Source of the DNA: Acidobacteriota bacterium
Lineage (GTDB): Bacteria > Acidobacteriota > Terriglobia > Terriglobales > Acidobacteriaceae
Assembly: GCA_046735175.1 (NCBI GenBank)
Contig: JBKPSP010000027.1
Coordinates: 220-64,219, forward strand
Reading direction: 5' to 3'
DNA: 64,000 nt
The notes under the pieces were generated by a model. The model saw nothing but the letters and a program-made list of their open reading frames with translations. It was not told the DNA's origin and did no database searches. Shown one piece after another: positions 47,237 through 57,736 of the stretch. Both the position numbers and the translations under genes were made by a program. Numbering within the stretch: position 1 is the stretch's first letter; the number at the start of each line of letters is the position of its first letter.

Positions 47237-49132
47237 TTGAGTATCCGGCCGAAACCAGCTCCCGCGCTTACTGAAGCCGAACAGCGACTTCGCACCATTG
47301 TCTCCAAAGCCCCGGTCATTTTGTTTGCCGCCGACCAGAACGGCACGGTGACGCTTTGCGAGGGCAAGGCACTGCAAAAGCTCGGCAAAGTTCCTGGCCA
47401 GTCCGTCGGGCAATCCCTGCTCGAGATGTATGGAAAATACCCGGCTCTGATCACGAGCATTCGCCGCGCTCTCCGCGGTGAAGAGTTCTTGAGTGTTGAG
47501 GAACTTCCCGAGCTTGGTCTGTGCTTCGAAACCCACTGGGTGCCGCAGCATTCTGAGGATGGCGAGCTGGCCGGCACTATCGCTGTAGCGGTGGATGTGA
47601 GCGAGCGCAGCCGTAACGAGCGCGCGAGGGAGGAGGCCGAAACTCTTTATCGCAGCCTGGTGGAGCAACTCTCGGCCGTCACCTACATCGCGGAGCTGGG
47701 AGTTGAGGGCGAGTGGCTGTTTGTCAGCCCTCAGATTGAATCGCTCCTGGGATACACGGCGCAGGAATGGCGCGCCAACGCCGCCAACTGGATCGAGAAC
47801 GTGCATCCGGAAGACCGCGAAATTGTTCTGGCGGCAGAGGATGCAACCCTGCAAGGGAAATCTTTCCGGGCGGAGTATCGGATGTTCCGCCGTGACGGCA
47901 AACTTATTTGGATCAACGATAGCGGCTCGCTGGTGCCGGGGCCGAATGGCCGGTCATTGCTGCACGGTGTTCTCCTCGAAGTAACTGAGCAAAAGCAATT
48001 GCAGGTGCATCTCTCGCACAGCCAACGCATGGAAGCTGTGGGACAGCTGGCGTCCGGCGTCGCGCACGACTTCAACAATCTGTTGACGATTATCAAGGGC
48101 TACAGCAGCCTGCTGATGGAGCGGGATCTGGATGAGACTGACGCACACGCGGCGCGAGAGATCCAACAGGCTGCGGAGCGCGCGGCTGCGCTGACTCACC
48201 AGCTTTTGGCATTCAGCCGCAAGCAGACCCTGCAGCCGCGAGTGCTGGACTTGAACAAGATTGTTCACGGCCTAGAAATGATGCTCCGCCGCGTACTCAC
48301 CGAGAACGTGGAGTTGCGCATCCAAACGGCGGCAGATTTGGGACTGGTGAAAGCCGATCCGGTGCAGATGGAACAGGTCCTGATCAACCTGGTGGTGAAC
48401 GCTCGAGACGCCATGCCCAAGGGAGGTACGCTAACCATTGCCACTGCGCCCCGTCAAGTATTGCAGCACTCGGGTGAGGGCGAATCGTTGATGCGCGCAG
48501 GTTCGTACGTGAGTCTGACCGTATCGGATACCGGCATAGGAATGGATTCGGCGACGCGGACCCGGATATTCGAACCCTTTTTCACCACGAAAGAGGTTGG
48601 CAAGGGAACCGGATTGGGCCTCGCAACCGTATATGGCATTGTCAAGCAGAGCAACGGCCATATCGAGGTCGAAAGCGAACCCGGGAAAGGCGCCGCTTTC
48701 CGCATATCATTGCCCAGAGTTGAACAGGAAGTGACCGCACCACGGAAGCCCCCAATGACCGAGCCCAAACACGGAACTGGAACAATTCTGTTGGCCGAGG
48801 ACGAACCGCTTTTGCGAGAGCTGGGCCAAACCATTCTTACCCAGGCGGGTTATAAGATCCTGACCGCACCCAATGCCGACGCGCTTGAGACGTTCGTCGC
48901 CGAGCACGAAGGCAAAATCGATTTACTGCTGACTGACGTCGTCATGCCGGGCATGAGCGGGCCGGAACTGGTGAAACTGGTGCGCGCGCGCTGGCCCGAG
49001 GTGCGGGTTCTGTATATGTCCGGGTACGCGGACGACGAAATTGAGGATCTGGATCGCGATGCCGGATTTTTGCAAAAGCCCTTTACGCCAACCGAACTGA
49101 CCGAGAAGATTGCGGAGATGCTGGCGAGGTAG
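47237..49132 (+). CDS. Hybrid sensor histidine kinase/response regulator (PAS-PAS-HisKA-HATPase-REC)
   Basis: H-box VGQLASGVAHDFNNLL, N/G boxes (NLVVNARDAM; DTGIGM; GTGLGLA) and a C-terminal receiver (ILLAEDE...DLLLTDVVMPGMSG). TTG start, uncertain. Confidence 0.88.
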   Translation: MSIRPKPAPALTEAEQRLRTIVSKAPVILFAADQNGTVTLCEGKALQKLGKVPGQSVGQSLLEMYGKYPALITSIRRALRGEEFLSVEELPELGLCFETHWVPQHSEDGELAGTIAVAVDVSERSRNERAREEAETLYRSLVEQLSAVTYIAELGVEGEWLFVSPQIESLLGYTAQEWRANAANWIENVHPEDREIVLAAEDATLQGKSFRAEYRMFRRDGKLIWINDSGSLVPGPNGRSLLHGVLLEVTEQKQLQVHLSHSQRMEAVGQLASGVAHDFNNLLTIIKGYSSLLMERDLDETDAHAAREIQQAAERAAALTHQLLAFSRKQTLQPRVLDLNKIVHGLEMMLRRVLTENVELRIQTAADLGLVKADPVQMEQVLINLVVNARDAMPKGGTLTIATAPRQVLQHSGEGESLMRAGSYVSLTVSDTGIGMDSATRTRIFEPFFTTKEVGKGTGLGLATVYGIVKQSNGHIEVESEPGKGAAFRISLPRVEQEVTAPRKPPMTEPKHGTGTILLAEDEPLLRELGQTILTQAGYKILTAPNADALETFVAEHEGKIDLLLTDVVMPGMSGPELVKLVRARWPEVRVLYMSGYADDEIEDLDRDAGFLQKPFTPTELTEKIAEMLAR

Positions 49133-49136
49133 AAGC

Positions 49137-49206
49137 GGCTCTTGGCTCTTGGCTCTTGGCTCTTGGCTCTTGGCTCTTGGCTCTTGGCTCTTGGCTCTTG
49201 GCTCTT
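49137..49206. repeat. Perfect tandem repeat (GGCTCTT) x10
   Basis: Counted base by base: ten uninterrupted copies of ggctctt, starting 5 nt after the kinase stop codon. Confidence 0.97.
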
Positions 49207-49246
49207 GGCGTTCTCCGCGGCCTTTCTCTGCGATCTCTGCGGTTAA
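49207..49246. repeat. Half TTAACCGCAGAG-type element fused to the heptamer array
   Basis: ggcgttctccgcggcctttctctgcgatctctgcggttaa matches the right arm of the 32738-32831 element. Confidence 0.75.
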
Positions 49247-51191: not shown

Positions 51192-51394
51192 AGGTATTGG
51201 TAAATTCCGAATCTGGATTATACCCATCGCCGGGCGCGCGATGCAGTTTCCCAAAATGGCCAGGGAAGAAATCAACCCGCAATCCTTGTAGCTAAACCAA
51301 AAAAAATGGGCATATGATCCACAGCAGCGCCACATAGTCCGACACCTGTGGCCGGTGCACCTTCCGAAAGCCCGCTTCCTTGAACGGAGGCCCG

Positions 51395-52549
51395 ATGTCA
51401 CTGTTAAATACTGGCTCCGCCTCGTTTGTACCCTCGCGTTTCCTCAAACATCAGGTTCTTACCATCGCGGTTGGCGTGTCCCTCACGATCGGGGCCTTCG
51501 CCATTTGGCCGATATTGCCTGTTCAGTTGCTGAGCACAAACTATCTACCCCACGCATTTTGCTATTTGAGGAGGCCCGGGTTGGTGTGGACCCACGTCTC
51601 TGCAGATTTACTGATTGGGGTGTCATACCTTGCGATCTCGATCACGCTCGGATATCTGGGTTACAAAGGGCGGCGCGATGTTCCGTATCACTGGATGTTT
51701 CTGGCGTTCGGACTCTTCATTCTTGGCTGTGGCGGAACGCATTTCGTGGAAGCGGTCACGTTTTGGATCCCCGTGTATGTGCTGGCGGCCGCGGTCAAAC
51801 TTTTCACCGCTGCAGTTTCGCTCACTACAGCTGCGGTGCTTCCTTTTACTGTGCAGCACGCGTTTGACCTCATAAAGCAGGCTAGAGCAACGGAACAACG
51901 GACGGCAGAACTGCGCGCAAGTGAAGAGCGTAAGGATGCCCTGCTTCAGGAAGTCCATCACCGGGTGAAAAACAATATGGCGGTGATTTGCAGTCTTTTT
52001 TATCTGCAATCGATCCATACGAAGGACGAGGAGACCGCGCAGATTTTTCGTGACATGGAGAATCGCGTGCATTCCATGGCGCTGGTCCACGAAAGCCTCT
52101 ACGGATCGGACAACCTGGCGCGCATCGACTTTGCCGAATATTCCCGGCGTTTGGCGGAAGATATTCTGGCGTCGCACGGGAGCCCTGACGTGTTAGTGCG
52201 CTTGCGTGCCGAACTGGAGCCTGTAACCATGGGCGCTGACTTAGCGGTGCCATGTGGGCTCATCCTCAATGAACTGGTCTCGAATGCGTTTAAGCATGGC
52301 TTTCCTGAGGGCGCGCGCGGCGAGATCAACCTGACGCTGCGCGGTGATGCAGGCGGCAGATATACTCTGTGCGTTCAGGACAGCGGGGTGGGGATTCCCG
52401 CCGGCCTTGATGTCAGAAACAGCCGATCTCTTGGACTGAAACTGGTGCGGTTGCTGACCCAGCAGATTCGCGGTTCGTTCGAGCTGGTGAAGTGTGACCA
52501 GGGGACCTCAGCCAACCTGCACTTTGAGGTGAGCCAACATGCATGCTGA
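51395..52549 (+). CDS. Membrane sensor histidine kinase: ethylene-binding-domain-like TM module + HisKA_2 + HATPase_c
   Basis: ATG 51395 follows GGAGG. The TM region aligns with ETR1 residues ~20-115, including C-x3-H (LGCGGTHF). The H-box EVHHRVKNNMAVI is HisKA_2 type. The ATP-binding region is LILNELVSNAFKHGF...DSGVGIP...GLKLV. Confidence 0.8.
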   Translation: MSLLNTGSASFVPSRFLKHQVLTIAVGVSLTIGAFAIWPILPVQLLSTNYLPHAFCYLRRPGLVWTHVSADLLIGVSYLAISITLGYLGYKGRRDVPYHWMFLAFGLFILGCGGTHFVEAVTFWIPVYVLAAAVKLFTAAVSLTTAAVLPFTVQHAFDLIKQARATEQRTAELRASEERKDALLQEVHHRVKNNMAVICSLFYLQSIHTKDEETAQIFRDMENRVHSMALVHESLYGSDNLARIDFAEYSRRLAEDILASHGSPDVLVRLRAELEPVTMGADLAVPCGLILNELVSNAFKHGFPEGARGEINLTLRGDAGGRYTLCVQDSGVGIPAGLDVRNSRSLGLKLVRLLTQQIRGSFELVKCDQGTSANLHFEVSQHAC

Positions 52550-52955
52550 TTTAATCACGACTGAGCCACGCGCACTGATTGTGGAAGATGAAGCTCTGAT
52601 CGCGGAAGAACTGAGAGAGCGGCTTTCGCGGTTGGGTTTTTCGATCATTGCGGCTGTGGATTCCGGCGAAGAAGGTATAGCAATCGCTACGCGAGAACGT
52701 CCTGACCTAGTCTTGATGGACATAAGGTTGAAGGGCCAGAAGGATGGCGTCCAAGCTGCTAAAGAGATTCGCGAGCAGGTTGATGTGCCAATTGTTTACC
52801 TGACTGCCCACTCGGATCGTGGCACTGTGGACCGGGCGAGTAATACCGACCACGATGGTTTCATCCTGAAGCCATTCGTGAGGCGAGAATTGCAGTCTAC
52901 GATAGAGGTCGCGATGCAGCGGCATGCGATGAGGGCGCAGGAGAAGGTGCAGTAG
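52539..52955 (+). CDS. Single-domain response regulator (CheY-like)
   Basis: Canonical receiver: VEDE acidic pair, DLVLMDIRL phospho-acceptor, YLTAHS and ILKPF. It overlaps the kinase gene by 11 nt. Confidence 0.9.
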   Translation: MHADLITTEPRALIVEDEALIAEELRERLSRLGFSIIAAVDSGEEGIAIATRERPDLVLMDIRLKGQKDGVQAAKEIREQVDVPIVYLTAHSDRGTVDRASNTDHDGFILKPFVRRELQSTIEVAMQRHAMRAQEKVQ

Positions 52956-53146: not shown

Positions 53147-54178
53147 CTATTCGATTCCTCGACCAGTCAACCGTTCGATTACGGTTTTCACTGGGCCTGA
53201 GAGTTCAATGCTCCCCTCAAAACTGCGCGTTTCTATTCCGTCGCTCTCGGCGACAATCATGTCTTTGTCGTGAAACTCAAAAATAATCCTGGGTTGGCCT
53301 ATGGGAAGCCCGTGCCGTCTGGAACGAGAAACCACAAAGGCCCACATTGACTGCCCAGCCCGTAGTCGGCTGTCGTACCCGGCTTGGCGGAGTTGTCGCA
53401 GGAAGTGAAGCACTTTAGTTCGTGAAGGGAAATGGAAATCATCGACGTAGGAACGTTCAACCCAATTCCAGCTGTGCAGAAATTCGCCTTCTATGGGATT
53501 CCCGCGTTCGTAATACTCGGCGATTTCTCCTATGGAAAGCCACGGGAATTCTTTGCGCATTTCTGACGGTTGTACATCCTCGCAGAGCCATCTTTTCAGG
53601 ACAGCACCGAATTGGCTCAAATCATCTACATCGTGACGAAACATCTCACAGTCATCCCATTTGCAGGATGCTTGAGGGACATCGTTACGAAGATAAATAT
53701 GACATGAGCGTGCGTGAGTTCGAAACCAGAGTGATCGGAACTCAGGCGACGCAAGGCCTTTCTGGAGTTCGGTTGAAAGCTTCTGCAGTTCCGGAAACGC
53801 CTTAGTAACAGAGGTAAGAATGTGAGTTAATTCGCGTTCTGGCTTGTCCACAAATGCGAAATGGTCGTAGAGCGAGGACAGTGACTGACCATCCAGCCAG
53901 CATTGAACAGCTCTCTCTGCCTCGTCGATCGACCGCGTTCTGCCAGCCGCAACTTTCTGCTCTACATCTTTAAATACGATCAGGAACTCAGGGCCGCGAT
54001 ACTCACGGAGTCGGTAATGGAAGCAGTGCACAACAGCCAATCGTTGCTGCCGCTTCGCACGGCATTTGGAGTTCGTTCCCTTTCCGTTAATCTCCACAGT
54101 AACATCGGCCGAACGTGGGAACCGCTGAACTAGACGGTCGGATAACTCGCACGCGTAATCTTCCTGGGGGTATTGCAT
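53147..54178 (-). CDS. Hypothetical protein, no recognisable domain (AT-richer orphan)
   Basis: 343-aa uninterrupted ORF flanked by ~190-nt and ~280-nt non-coding regions. A hand count of nt 53401-53520 gives 57/120 G+C. Confidence 0.6.
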   Translation of the reverse strand: MQYPQEDYACELSDRLVQRFPRSADVTVEINGKGTNSKCRAKRQQRLAVVHCFHYRLREYRGPEFLIVFKDVEQKVAAGRTRSIDEAERAVQCWLDGQSLSSLYDHFAFVDKPERELTHILTSVTKAFPELQKLSTELQKGLASPEFRSLWFRTHARSCHIYLRNDVPQASCKWDDCEMFRHDVDDLSQFGAVLKRWLCEDVQPSEMRKEFPWLSIGEIAEYYERGNPIEGEFLHSWNWVERSYVDDFHFPSRTKVLHFLRQLRQAGYDSRLRAGQSMWAFVVSRSRRHGLPIGQPRIIFEFHDKDMIVAESDGIETRSFEGSIELSGPVKTVIERLTGRGIE

Positions 54179-54456: not shown

Positions 54457-56040
54457 ATGGCTGTTTCATACGACGCAATCGTCATCGGAGGCGGGCACAA
54501 CGGGCTCACGCATGCGGCGTATCTTGCGAAGGCGGGCAAGAAAGTGCTCGTGCTCGAGCGTCGGCACGTGCTCGGAGGGGCGGCGGTTACGGAGGAAGTT
54601 TTTCCGGGATTCAAGTTCTCGGTCTGCTCCTATGTTGTGTCGCTGTTGCGGCCGGAGATCATTCGCGATCTCGACCTGCCGCGGCATGGCCTCGAAATCC
54701 TTCCGCTGGACGGCACGTTCACGCCGATGCCTAATGGCGATTACCTGTGGCGCGTGAACGATCATGGCAGAACGTATCGCGAGATCGCACGGCACTCGCG
54801 ACTTGATGCGGATGCTTACGACGACTTCGGCAAGGCGATGCAGCCGATGTGCCACTTCGTGAAGCCGATTCTGAACATGGTGCCGCCCGACCCAACCGGG
54901 CTGAATCCGAAAGAACTTTCGAAGCTGCTGTTCATGGCTCGGCGATTCCAGAAGCTTTCGAGCGGTGATCGCTACAACCTGGTGCAGCTCATGACGATGA
55001 GTGCGGCGGACTTTCTCGATCAGTGGTTCGAGACGGATGTGCTCAAGGCGACGATGTCGGCGTCCGGGATTATCGGGACGTTTCTCGGAGTGCGTTCGCC
55101 CGGCACAGCGTACGTTTTGCTGCACCACTACATGGGCGAGATCGACGGCGCATTTCGCGCCTGGGGATTCGCACGTGGCGGCACCGGCGGAATTTCAAAT
55201 GCGATTGGCGACGCGGCGGTCGAAGCGGGCGTGGAGATTCGAAAGGAAGCGGGAGTTGCGAAGATTATCGTGAAAGCCGGGCGGGCTGTCGGCGTTGCGC
55301 TGAGCAACGGCGATGAAATCTACGGAAAGGTTATTTCATCGAGCGTCGATCCGCGGCATACGTTCATTGAGTTCATCGATAACGCAAATCTGCCAGGAGA
55401 CTTTCTCGACGAAGTTCGCCGATACAAATACCGGGGATCTTCGGGGAAAGTGAACCTTGCGCTCGATGCTCTGCCGGACTTCAGATGCATGCCCGGGCCG
55501 GGTGCGCACTTGCGCGGTGCGATTTCGATTTCGCCGGCAGTTGAATACATGGAGCGCGCTTACGACGACGCGAAATATGGGACGTTCTCGCGGCGTCCTT
55601 ATATCGACATGGTGATTCCGTCGTTGACTGATCCGAGCGTAGCGCCTCCGGGAAAACATGTGCTCTCATGCTTCGTGCAGTATGCACCGTACAAATTGAA
55701 GCCCGGGCTTGATTGGGACCAACTGCGCGATGATTTTGGGAACACAGTGATCGACACGATCTCGGAGTACGCGCCGAACCTGAAGAACATCATCCTGCAC
55801 AAACAGGTTGTGACGCCGCTCGATCTTGAACGCGAGTGGGGGCTGAGCGAGGGGAACATTTTTCAGGGCGAACTGTCGCTGGAGCAGCTTTTCTTTTTGC
55901 GTCCCGCACCGGGATGGGCGCGGTTCCGAACGCCGATCAAGAATCTGTACATGTGCGGCTCGGCAACGCATCCCGGCGGCGGGATCATGGGTGCGCCGGG
56001 AAGATTGTCGGCGCTGGAAGTTTTGAAAGATGTGGGTTGA
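54457..56040 (+). CDS. Phytoene-desaturase (CrtI)-family NAD(P)/FAD-dependent oxidoreductase, paralogue 1
   Basis: IVIGGGHNGL dinucleotide-binding motif, 527 aa, C-terminal GSATHPGGGI motif. Confidence 0.85.
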   Translation: MAVSYDAIVIGGGHNGLTHAAYLAKAGKKVLVLERRHVLGGAAVTEEVFPGFKFSVCSYVVSLLRPEIIRDLDLPRHGLEILPLDGTFTPMPNGDYLWRVNDHGRTYREIARHSRLDADAYDDFGKAMQPMCHFVKPILNMVPPDPTGLNPKELSKLLFMARRFQKLSSGDRYNLVQLMTMSAADFLDQWFETDVLKATMSASGIIGTFLGVRSPGTAYVLLHHYMGEIDGAFRAWGFARGGTGGISNAIGDAAVEAGVEIRKEAGVAKIIVKAGRAVGVALSNGDEIYGKVISSSVDPRHTFIEFIDNANLPGDFLDEVRRYKYRGSSGKVNLALDALPDFRCMPGPGAHLRGAISISPAVEYMERAYDDAKYGTFSRRPYIDMVIPSLTDPSVAPPGKHVLSCFVQYAPYKLKPGLDWDQLRDDFGNTVIDTISEYAPNLKNIILHKQVVTPLDLEREWGLSEGNIFQGELSLEQLFFLRPAPGWARFRTPIKNLYMCGSATHPGGGIMGAPGRLSALEVLKDVG

Positions 56041-56146: not shown

Positions 56147-57736
56147 ATGCCTAACTCTCACGACATCGTCATTATCGGCGGCGGGCACAACGGCCTGGTC
56201 ACGGCATTTTATCTTGCCAAGGCCGGATTAAAGCCGCTGGTATTGGAGCGACGTAATCAGGTTGGCGGCGCGGCCATCACGGAGGAATTCCACCCTGGTT
56301 TTCGCACATCCGCCCTCGCGCACTCGGCGGGGCCGCTGCGCCCGGAAGTCGGGCGCGACATGCAGCTTGAGCGGCATGGGCTGAAGATCGTCACTCCTGA
56401 AATCGCGGTAACAACGCTTTCGCCTGATGGACGCGCGCTGATGATTCCGGCCGACATTAACAAAGCCGCGGAGCAAATCGCCAGGTTCTCGCAGGCGGAC
56501 GCTGCAAAGTACCGTGAGTTCCAGCCTGCATTAGAAAAAGCCTCACGGGTGATCGCAAAAACTCTGGCGATGACTCCGCCAGAAATTGAGAATCCGACGA
56601 AGGCTGATCTGTTCGGGCTGCTTCAGATCGGACGGTCCGTGCGCGGGCTAGGAAGGAAGAACACGTTCAACCTGCTGCGCTGGGCGCCGATGGCGGTTGC
56701 CGATCTTGCAGCTGAGTTTTTCGAAACAGAATTACTGCGCGCCACGGTTGCTGCTCGCGGGATATTCGGGACATTTCTGGGGCCGTGGTCGGCAGGGACG
56801 GCGCTGGTGCTGTTGCTTCGCGCCGCGGCGGACGCGACTCCGGTTGGCGGCAATTTCTTTGCTGTTGGCGGCGCAGGAGCGATCACGCAAGCGATGGCTG
56901 CCGCGGCACAGCAAGCCGGCGGGGAGATTCGCACTGGCGCGGAAGTGATTGAGATTCAGATCCAGGGCGGAGTGGCGCGCGGCGTGGTGCTGTCATCAGG
57001 AGAAGAGATCACGGCGCGCGCGGTGATTTCGAACGCCGATCCGAAGCGGACGTTCCTTAAGCTGACCGATCCTTCGTTGCTTTCGCCTACATTTACGAAA
57101 CGTCTGCAGAATTATCGGACGAATGGAACCGTCGCGAAGGTGAACCTGGCGCTCGCGGGGCTGCCGACTTTCAAGGGTCTTGAAGGGAATACCGAGGCGC
57201 TGAAAGGCCGAATGCAGATCGGGCATGAGATTGATTATCTGGAGCGCGCGTTTGATGAGTCGAAGTATGGGAACTTTTCGCGCGCGCCGTATCTGGAGAT
57301 CACGATCCCGTCGCTGACCGATCCTTCGCTTGCCCCGGACGGCAGGCACGTGATGTCTGTTTACATGCAGTACGCGCCTTACAAATTGAAGAATGGCACT
57401 TGGGACGATCAGCGTACCGCGCTCGGCGACACGGTGGTGAAGACGCTCGCACAATATGCGCCTGACCTGCCGGAGAAGATCTTGAGCCATCAGATCATCA
57501 CGCCTCAGGACCTTGAGGACAACTACGGGCTGACCGGCGGGCACATCTTCCACGGCGAACTGGCGCTGGATCAGGTGTTCACCATGCGTCCGATGCTGGA
57601 TTGGGCGCGGTACCGCACGCCGATTCACGGGTTGTATTTGTGCGGCTCGGGGACGCATCCCGGGACGGGGTTGACCGGCGGTTCGGGGCAGAATGCGGCG
57701 AGGGAGATTGTGAAGGATTTGAAGAACCGGCGGTGA
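56147..57736 (+). CDS. Phytoene-desaturase (CrtI)-family NAD(P)/FAD-dependent oxidoreductase, paralogue 2
   Basis: IIGGGHNGL motif and GSGTHPGTGL. Collinear similarity to paralogue 1 along the whole length. Confidence 0.85.
   Translation: MPNSHDIVIIGGGHNGLVTAFYLAKAGLKPLVLERRNQVGGAAITEEFHPGFRTSALAHSAGPLRPEVGRDMQLERHGLKIVTPEIAVTTLSPDGRALMIPADINKAAEQIARFSQADAAKYREFQPALEKASRVIAKTLAMTPPEIENPTKADLFGLLQIGRSVRGLGRKNTFNLLRWAPMAVADLAAEFFETELLRATVAARGIFGTFLGPWSAGTALVLLLRAAADATPVGGNFFAVGGAGAITQAMAAAAQQAGGEIRTGAEVIEIQIQGGVARGVVLSSGEEITARAVISNADPKRTFLKLTDPSLLSPTFTKRLQNYRTNGTVAKVNLALAGLPTFKGLEGNTEALKGRMQIGHEIDYLERAFDESKYGNFSRAPYLEITIPSLTDPSLAPDGRHVMSVYMQYAPYKLKNGTWDDQRTALGDTVVKTLAQYAPDLPEKILSHQIITPQDLEDNYGLTGGHIFHGELALDQVFTMRPMLDWARYRTPIHGLYLCGSGTHPGTGLTGGSGQNAAREIVKDLKNRR

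Follow-up and report, generated by a model that had tools for sequence, protein, structure and literature searches.

A HisKA_2 sensor kinase with a membrane domain homologous to plant ethylene-binding domains, and its overlapping receiver gene, in uncultured Terriglobales

The systems closest to the one described here are the ethylene receptors ETR1 and ERS1 of Arabidopsis, SynEtr1 and GeiEtr1/2 of cyanobacteria, and AzoEtr1 of Azospirillum brasilense, all of which carry an ethylene-binding domain (EBD). We looked at a stretch of 64,000 nucleotides from an Acidobacteriota bacterium (Terriglobales, Acidobacteriaceae; GenBank assembly GCA_046735175.1, contig JBKPSP010000027.1, positions 220 to 64,219 of the forward strand), called the window below, and in it at a sensor histidine kinase gene followed by a response regulator gene. 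Residues of the kinase are numbered throughout from the ATG start at window position 51395. A preliminary description of this DNA had compared the membrane part of the kinase with the EBD of ETR1. Homology of this sensor to the EBD, conservation of its key residues, the architecture of the kinase and its pairing with the receiver gene were all observed. We consider it probable that the two genes form a two-component system of uncultured Terriglobales in which a Cu(I)-dependent sensor of ethylene, or of another alkene, controls phosphotransfer to the receiver.

Seven residues of ETR1 were reported to be required for ethylene binding (PMC6682694, PMC11819568). I35, P36, I62, C65 and H69 were named among the essential ones (PMC6586836). 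Binding of copper and of ethylene both require D25, which is also coupled to K91 in signal output (PMC10266040). A published survey covers 1,221 EBDs of eukaryotes and prokaryotes (PMC10266040). Like ETR1 and ERS1, the kinase of the window has a histidine-kinase-type output behind three helices homologous to their Cu(I)-binding EBD, equivalents of D25, Y32, I35, I62, C65, H69 and K91, and a Cys, presumably extracytoplasmic, N-terminal to helix 1. The plant proteins differ in that they have Pro36 and a GAF domain and that their kinase is of the HisKA type, in some cases with a receiver fused to it; they signal mainly via CTR1, independently of kinase activity. The plant-type architecture, that is a GAF domain after the EBD and a HisKA kinase, was not found here. 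Plant receptors of subfamily 1 have no counterpart of the extra N-terminal helix of our kinase (TM0), while those of subfamily 2 have an extra N-terminal hydrophobic stretch. The cyanobacterial systems, SynEtr1 (UirS/PixA, slr1212) with slr1213 in Synechocystis PCC 6803 and GeiEtr1/2 in Geitlerinema, likewise couple an EBD to phosphotransfer to a response regulator, and also have a single Cys N-terminal to helix 1 (PMC6682694). Unlike the kinase of the window, they contain a GAF/cyanobacteriochrome domain, with PAS, act as photoreceptors and are reported to keep all seven residues. Moreover, slr1213 activates csiR1 transcription, whereas the receiver of the window has no output domain.

AzoEtr1 is an EBD-PAS-kinase whose stop codon is overlapped by the gene of a 135-aa stand-alone receiver. 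A fragment of its first 130 residues binds 14C-ethylene, D35A/C75A mutants were constructed in the expectation that they would not bind, and both biofilm formation and root colonisation are controlled by the receptor (PMC11819568). Receptor disruption leads to constitutive ethylene responses in both Azospirillum and Synechocystis, which fits the inverse-agonist model of plants (PMC11819568). The acidobacterial pair resembles AzoEtr1/AzoRR(Etr1) in its N-terminal EBD on a histidine kinase, in its adjacent and overlapping stand-alone receiver of similar size, in the retention of the Asp, Cys, His and Lys equivalents and in its soil host. Contrarily to AzoEtr1, no PAS domain separates the EBD from the kinase, and the kinase belongs to a different subfamily. 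The key residues of AzoEtr1 lie about 36 positions closer to the N-terminus (D35 against D71), so that it has no room for TM0, and it is reported with all seven ETR1 binding residues including Pro36, where the protein of the window has Ser. Finally, AzoEtr1 is alphaproteobacterial and its ethylene binding and phenotypes were demonstrated, while the acidobacterial pair is known here from sequence.

The assignment of the sensor to the EBD family was supported by profile and pairwise searches. The Pfam profile PF25487 (ETR1_N) matched residues 63-157 of the kinase with an E-value of 3.2e-28 and 98.3 bits, well above its gathering cutoff of 27, and the match spanned profile positions 2-95 of 97. 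A profile hidden Markov model search was the check that the preliminary description had proposed for its claim of homology, and the claim passed it. By BLASTP, the kinase was 30% identical to the ETR1 N-terminus over 107 aa (E 3e-12). The ETR1 reference shares 82-91% identity with database entries labelled as plant ethylene receptors and so can be used as a valid plant reference, though the exact Arabidopsis entry was not recovered. Three transmembrane (TM) helices were found in the matched region both by hydropathy (segments at about 66-90, 99-121 and 124-150) and in the AlphaFold2 (AF2) model (helices 61-91, 99-121 and from 126 onward). These matches strongly support that the resemblance to ETR1 is far beyond chance and that the sensor is a true EBD homologue; as judged from its sequence, the kinase clearly belongs to the ETR1_N family.

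Alignments with ETR1 placed the copper and output residues D25, C65, H69 and K91 at D71, C112, H116 and K135 of the kinase, and the further pocket residues Y32, I35, P36 and I62 at Y78, I81, S82 and I109. Y32 is reportedly another of the seven required residues. When the seven-residue pattern derived from ETR1 mutagenesis was applied, all positions were retained except that of Pro36. D71, Y78, S82, I109, C112, H116 and K135 were invariant in 121/121 close homologues (67-92% identity), as were H53, C56, Y57 and H189, while the I81 position was occupied by Ile in 120 of them and by Val in one. For more distant relatives, residues 46-165 were used in an exhaustive phmmer search against 1.84 billion cluster representatives (clusters at 50% identity), which returned 7,174 proteins at E≤1e-3, of which 4,502 reached E≤1e-10. 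In the best 149 of the 7,174 representatives (EBD identity 46-79%; the distant set), the copper and output residues were again almost always present (D71 in 147, C112 in all 149, H116 in 146 and K135 in 143), and so were those of the pocket (Y78 147/149, I81 148/149, I109 148/149). The preliminary description had pointed to the Cys/His pair with its C-x3-H spacing (tgt at 51728-51730, cat at 51740-51742) and to equivalents of Asp25 and Tyr32, and had stated that a Cys/His pair not conserved among close homologues would speak against its proposal. The pair, its spacing, its codons and its conservation were all confirmed, as were the Asp and Tyr equivalents. The description of the site was right; it overlooked the replacement of Pro36 by Ser82, K135, the juxtamembrane motif treated below, the commonness of such domains in bacteria and the precedent of AzoEtr1.

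Position 36 behaved differently from the rest of the pocket. The distant set had Ser in 136 sequences, Ala in 9, Thr in 3 and Gly in 1, and Pro in none, whereas Pro was present in 21 of 22 plant EBDs and in 4/4 of the Pro-type bacterial EBDs checked. The latter came from a search with the ETR1 N-terminus, whose hits were short plant fragments apart from four bacterial proteins (P0330-P0333), one of them from the gammaproteobacterium Exilibacterium. From these alignments, the change of Pro36 to Ser is the diagnostic difference of the clade, referred to as the Ser36 clade below.

The loss of one essential ETR1 residue could be taken to mean that the membrane domain, though derived from an EBD, no longer senses a ligand and only anchors or dimerises the protein, the kinase being regulated in some other way. 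As the protein has no cytoplasmic sensor domain that would have to be excluded, this can be argued by default only. Conservation points the other way. Across a clade of deep divergence, the buried polar or charged residues D71, C112, H116 and K135 stay the same. Mean column conservation over the 121 sequences was 0.867 for the EBD, 0.886 for HisKA_2 and 0.787 for the HATPase_c region, so that the EBD and HisKA_2 are the two segments of the kinase with the highest conservation, about equal to each other and above the ATP-binding region, which would not be expected of a simple anchor. Because these buried residues do not vary and because the protein contains no other candidate input domain, we regard a pure anchor as very improbable.

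Two features precede the first EBD helix. The extra N-terminal TM helix reported in the preliminary description is real by hydropathy and by AF2, which modelled TM0 as a helix at 15-37/40-47 with low per-residue confidence (pLDDT). A hydrophobic N-terminal segment was present in 116 of the 149 distant representatives, and its sequence was poorly conserved (mean 0.57 among the 121). Between TM0 and the EBD lies the motif P-H-x2-C-Y, located where ETR1 has its Cys4/Cys6 region, with H53 kept in 145 and C56 in 146 of the 149 sequences. The Lys/Arg distribution, according to the positive-inside rule, was consistent with the topology of ETR1, with the TM1-TM2 loop KGRRDVPY in the cytoplasm and the segment before TM1 outside; TM0 would then put the N-terminus of the kinase in the cytoplasm. 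The motif would thus be periplasmic, where it might serve in disulfide dimerisation or in copper entry. A P-H-x2-C-(Y/F) motif was also found in P0330-P0333, all four of which are of the Pro36 type and without TM0. Since it occurs in the Ser36 clade as well as in these four proteins, the H-x2-C motif is, from the sequences compared, a general feature of bacterial EBDs, while TM0 is common in the Ser36 clade. With 133-145 aa, P0330-P0333 (e.g. that of Exilibacterium tricleocarpae) comprise little beyond a Pro36-type EBD with P-H-x2-C-F; some of them may be stand-alone EBDs without output domain, or fragments.

The EBD was found to be joined straight to the HisKA_2 domain, with no GAF or PAS domain among the Pfam matches of the kinase, as had been claimed for GAF together with the H-box HHRVKNN. 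The presumed phosphorylated residue is H189 (codon 51959-51961). A HWE_HK profile also matched (E 1.7e-7), and by sequence the kinase is clearly a HisKA_2/HWE family member. A Foldseek search with the AF2 model gave matches to the cytoplasmic core of kinases only, the HATPase_c region aligning with histidine-kinase catalytic domains; the closest solved kinase structures were the EL346 LOV-HK (4r39/4r3a) and the Brucella LOV-HK. EL346 of Erythrobacter litoralis shares the HisKA_2/HWE core (phmmer E 1e-18, Foldseek E 2e-12) and the same H-box; it is a soluble protein that senses light through its LOV domain, whereas the input of our kinase is a membrane EBD. HisKA_2/HWE kinases are commonly paired with single-domain receivers. 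In the AF2 model, TM3 is predicted to continue as one unbroken helix (126-208) into the HisKA_2 helix that contains His189. Since a single predicted helix links the EBD to the kinase with no GAF or PAS between, this minimal wiring makes the protein attractive for biochemical and structural work on signal transmission.

The favoured mechanism is as follows. Within the membrane core, Cys112 and His116 of TM2 and Asp71 of TM1 would bind a Cu(I) ion. Ethylene, or a closely related small alkene, would partition into the membrane and bind the copper, and this would perturb the polar bridge from Asp71 to Lys135 in TM3. As TM3 runs as a single predicted helix into the dimerisation (DHp) helix carrying His189, the perturbation could alter autophosphorylation of His189 and phosphotransfer to Asp61 of the co-translated receiver. 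If the system behaves as in plants, Synechocystis and Azospirillum, its ligand would most likely switch the kinase off, acting as an inverse agonist. The receiver, having no output domain, would have to contact other proteins or else serve as a relay or sink for phosphate. In this scheme, copper binding, ethylene as the ligand, the direction of the response and all events downstream of the receiver are inferred.

Next to the kinase, the receiver matched Response_reg only in Pfam (E 2.4e-24), with Asp61 as phospho-acceptor (codon 52719-52721), and searches with it gave no distinctive affiliation beyond generic receiver domains. The conservation of the pair was followed in GTDB species genomes, in which 25 loci had full-length relatives at 58-83% identity; these genomes are all metagenome-assembled (MAGs) and labelled Acidobacteriota, Terriglobales, Acidobacteriaceae or Candidatus Sulfotelmatobacter. 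A receiver orthologue lay directly 3' of the kinase in 25/25 loci, and only these two genes recurred among them. Genes for copper transport, ethylene or 1-aminocyclopropane-1-carboxylate (ACC) metabolism and effectors were sought around the 25 loci, and none recurred. One MAG (Terriglobales SMAG_U1948) contained a pair of paralogous EBD-HisKA_2 kinases, both with a receiver of their own behind them (L013, 3294-4439; L024, 5818-7488, 556 aa). In L024, a PAS domain is inserted between EBD and HisKA_2, which is the domain order of AzoEtr1 and indicates modular evolution within the family. A Rhizomicrobium protein (L067), which by its match coordinates resembled an alphaproteobacterial EBD-HisKA_2 kinase, was rejected as an unrelated kinase with a periplasmic sensor.

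These neighbourhoods bear on whether the system could be a sensor of copper status, or of redox state or oxygen, in which the occupancy or oxidation of the membrane copper site is itself the signal and the H-x2-C motif may take part. The conserved Cys/His/Asp triad and His53/Cys56 are typical metal-binding residues, and the hosts, Terriglobales, presumably live in soil and peat, where redox conditions fluctuate. On the other side, copper is a tightly bound cofactor in every homologue tested, with a femtomolar KD for Cu(I) in ETR1 (PMC6586836), no copper-homeostasis gene was linked to the kinase in the 25 loci, and the Asp-Lys output pair, by which ligand binding is passed on to signalling, is kept. 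We therefore hold a copper or redox sensor to be improbable.

Several observations weigh against an ethylene sensor as proposed above. Mutation of Pro36 abolishes binding in ETR1, and this residue is replaced by Ser82 here and is never Pro in the clade, while the validated bacterial EBDs SynEtr1, GeiEtr1/2 and AzoEtr1 are reported to keep all seven residues (PMC6682694, PMC11819568). When the Protein Data Bank (PDB) was searched by sequence, using the kinase and the ETR1 N-terminus as queries, no solved EBD was found. The AF2 model has moderate confidence (mean pLDDT 71.9, pTM 0.48). No copper-handling or ethylene-related gene was linked to the cassette in the 25 loci or among the neighbours in the window, and both the signalling direction and the receiver's target are matters of pure analogy. 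Since Pro36 is Ser here, whereas the validated bacterial receptors reportedly retain the complete set, ethylene binding appears plausible from the sequence and less secure than the preliminary description implied. As Pro36 is not kept, the protein also falls outside the strict seven-residue definition of a predicted functional ethylene receptor.

The same residue raises another explanation, namely that the fold and the Cu(I) site are the same and that the change of Pro36 to Ser reshapes the TM1 pocket for another ligand or affinity. Candidate ligands would be a larger alkene or alkyne, CO or a volatile sulfur compound, or ethylene only at much higher concentrations. A position fixed as Ser, Ala or Thr throughout a large clade, and as Pro in plants and the other bacterial EBDs, suggests a clade-specific functional shift rather than drift. 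A single pocket residue can tune affinity, since a natural D25N change lowers that of ETR1 about 100-fold and yet the receptor functions (PMC10266040, PMC11971883), and a Cu(I)-dependent mouse odorant receptor for organosulfur ligands has been cited as a mechanistic parallel (PMC10266040). Nevertheless, all other pocket and output residues are unchanged, P36A in ETR1 may disturb the helix rather than a contact with the ligand, and there is no evidence for any specific alternative ligand. An altered ligand seems unlikely to us, and the proposal that the Ser36 clade as a whole (TM0, P-H-x2-C-Y and Ser/Ala/Thr at position 36) consists of functionally distinct Cu(I)-based membrane gas sensors, differing in ligand preference or markedly in ethylene affinity from the receptors of plants, cyanobacteria and Azospirillum, is made with a similar degree of doubt. 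If this proposal were true, the clade would be a second class of bacterial copper-dependent volatile sensors. The Ser36 clade is widespread among uncultured Acidobacteriota and not confined to them: with one representative in a cluster named Zixibacteria, it extends at least to that group. The fixed change of Pro36 to Ser is a natural experiment on a residue deemed essential in ETR1. If instead ethylene is bound, as in the reading that we favour, abundant uncultured Acidobacteria of soil and peat would join cyanobacteria and Azospirillum in perceiving this gas directly; ethylene in soil could report plant roots, waterlogging or neighbouring microbes.

To place the kinase among bacterial EBD proteins, we examined 70 distant representatives, all of which (70/70) matched ETR1_N and carried signalling outputs. 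HisKA (57), PAS (48) and fused receivers (22) were the commoner ones, HisKA_3 (6), HisKA_2 (3), STAS (2) and GAF (2) the rarer. As GAF was present in just 2/70, its absence appears normal for bacterial EBD proteins, among which a direct HisKA_2 fusion is, from these sequences, a minority arrangement. The lack of GAF, put forward in the preliminary description as a contrast with plant and cyanobacterial receptors, is thus true for this kinase and not unusual among bacterial EBDs, where PAS and kinase domains are usual. It had also held that EBDs are predicted in scattered bacteria, few of them tested; here the idea of homology was right and the novelty overstated, given the 7,174 clusters and the precedent of AzoEtr1. 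The kind of system is already known, and a specialist would find the pair expected rather than surprising. The points of interest are the fixed change of Pro36 to Ser across a large clade and the minimal EBD-to-kinase wiring.

Regarding the genes themselves, the open reading frames (ORFs) were as previously described, including the 11-nt overlap of kinase stop and receiver start, which was borne out by their coordinates (Table 1). The ORF list allows an alternative upstream TTG start at 51380, giving a kinase of 389 aa. The ATG at 51395 is the likely start, because among the 120 matches listed the homologues are mostly 384 aa long and align at full length (67-92% identity, query coverage 100%), and because GGAGG is located 6 nt 5' of it. 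The same 120 homologues have the Pfam domain set of the kinase in common, and GAGG is present upstream of the receiver ATG. The EBD had been given as residues 68-164, a TTG-based numbering that we replaced; the nucleotide coordinates were correct, nt 51581 being residue 63, the first of the ETR1_N match. A promoter and terminator scan found nothing exceeding background.

Table 1. Window coordinates of the kinase and receiver genes, of domains and residues of the kinase, and of neighbouring features
Feature	Position	Strand	Remarks
Sensor histidine kinase gene	51395..52549	+	384 aa, stop codon included; TM0, EBD-like module, HisKA_2, HATPase_c
Extra N-terminal helix TM0	51452..51529	+	about residues 20-45; hydropathy, AF2
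Juxtamembrane motif P52-H53-A-F-C56-Y57	51548..51565	+	directly before EBD helix 1
EBD homologue	51581..51865	+	residues 63-157; three TM helices, about 61-91, 99-121, 126-150
Asp71 codon gat	51605..51607	+	equivalent of ETR1 Asp25 (copper/ethylene binding, polar bridge to Lys91)
Ser82 codon tcg	51638..51640	+	ETR1 Pro36 position; sole binding-essential ETR1 residue not kept
Cys112-Gly-Gly-Thr-His116	51728..51742	+	equivalent of the ETR1 Cys65-x3-His69 Cu(I) ligand pair
Lys135 codon aaa	51797..51799	+	equivalent of ETR1 Lys91 in TM3, signal-output partner of Asp25
HisKA_2 dimerisation/phosphoacceptor domain	51950..52174	+	residues 186-260; PF07568, E 6.3e-26
HATPase_c catalytic ATP-binding domain	52259..52528	+	residues 289-378; PF02518, E 2e-9
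Stand-alone response regulator gene	52539..52955	+	138 aa, receiver domain only
Cytoplasmic hybrid histidine kinase	47237-49132	+	two PAS, HisKA, HATPase_c, receiver
Tandem repeat (GGCTCTT) x 10.4	49137-49209		100% matches
343-aa ORF	53147-54178	-	
FAD-dependent oxidoreductases, tandem paralogues	54457-56040, 56147-57736	+	amine-oxidase/phytoene-desaturase type

The neighbours of the pair in the window include a glyoxalase-family protein and a GcvT-like aminomethyltransferase, the latter common only to the two closest relatives (L001 and L019). The two FAD-dependent oxidoreductases downstream are syntenic in L001 and in no other locus, and since synteny is limited to this closest relative they are probably unrelated to the sensor. 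The 343-aa ORF between the receiver gene and the first oxidoreductase had no Pfam or PHROG match and no counterpart detected in the 25 related loci; it looks like a lineage-specific insertion, because the gap from receiver to oxidoreductase is only about 270 nt in L001. Upstream, at 2.2 kb, lies the hybrid histidine kinase, which is not conserved beside the EBD kinase in other genomes. The tandem repeat begins 5 nt past its stop codon, and so regular a microsatellite is unusual for a bacterial intergenic region.

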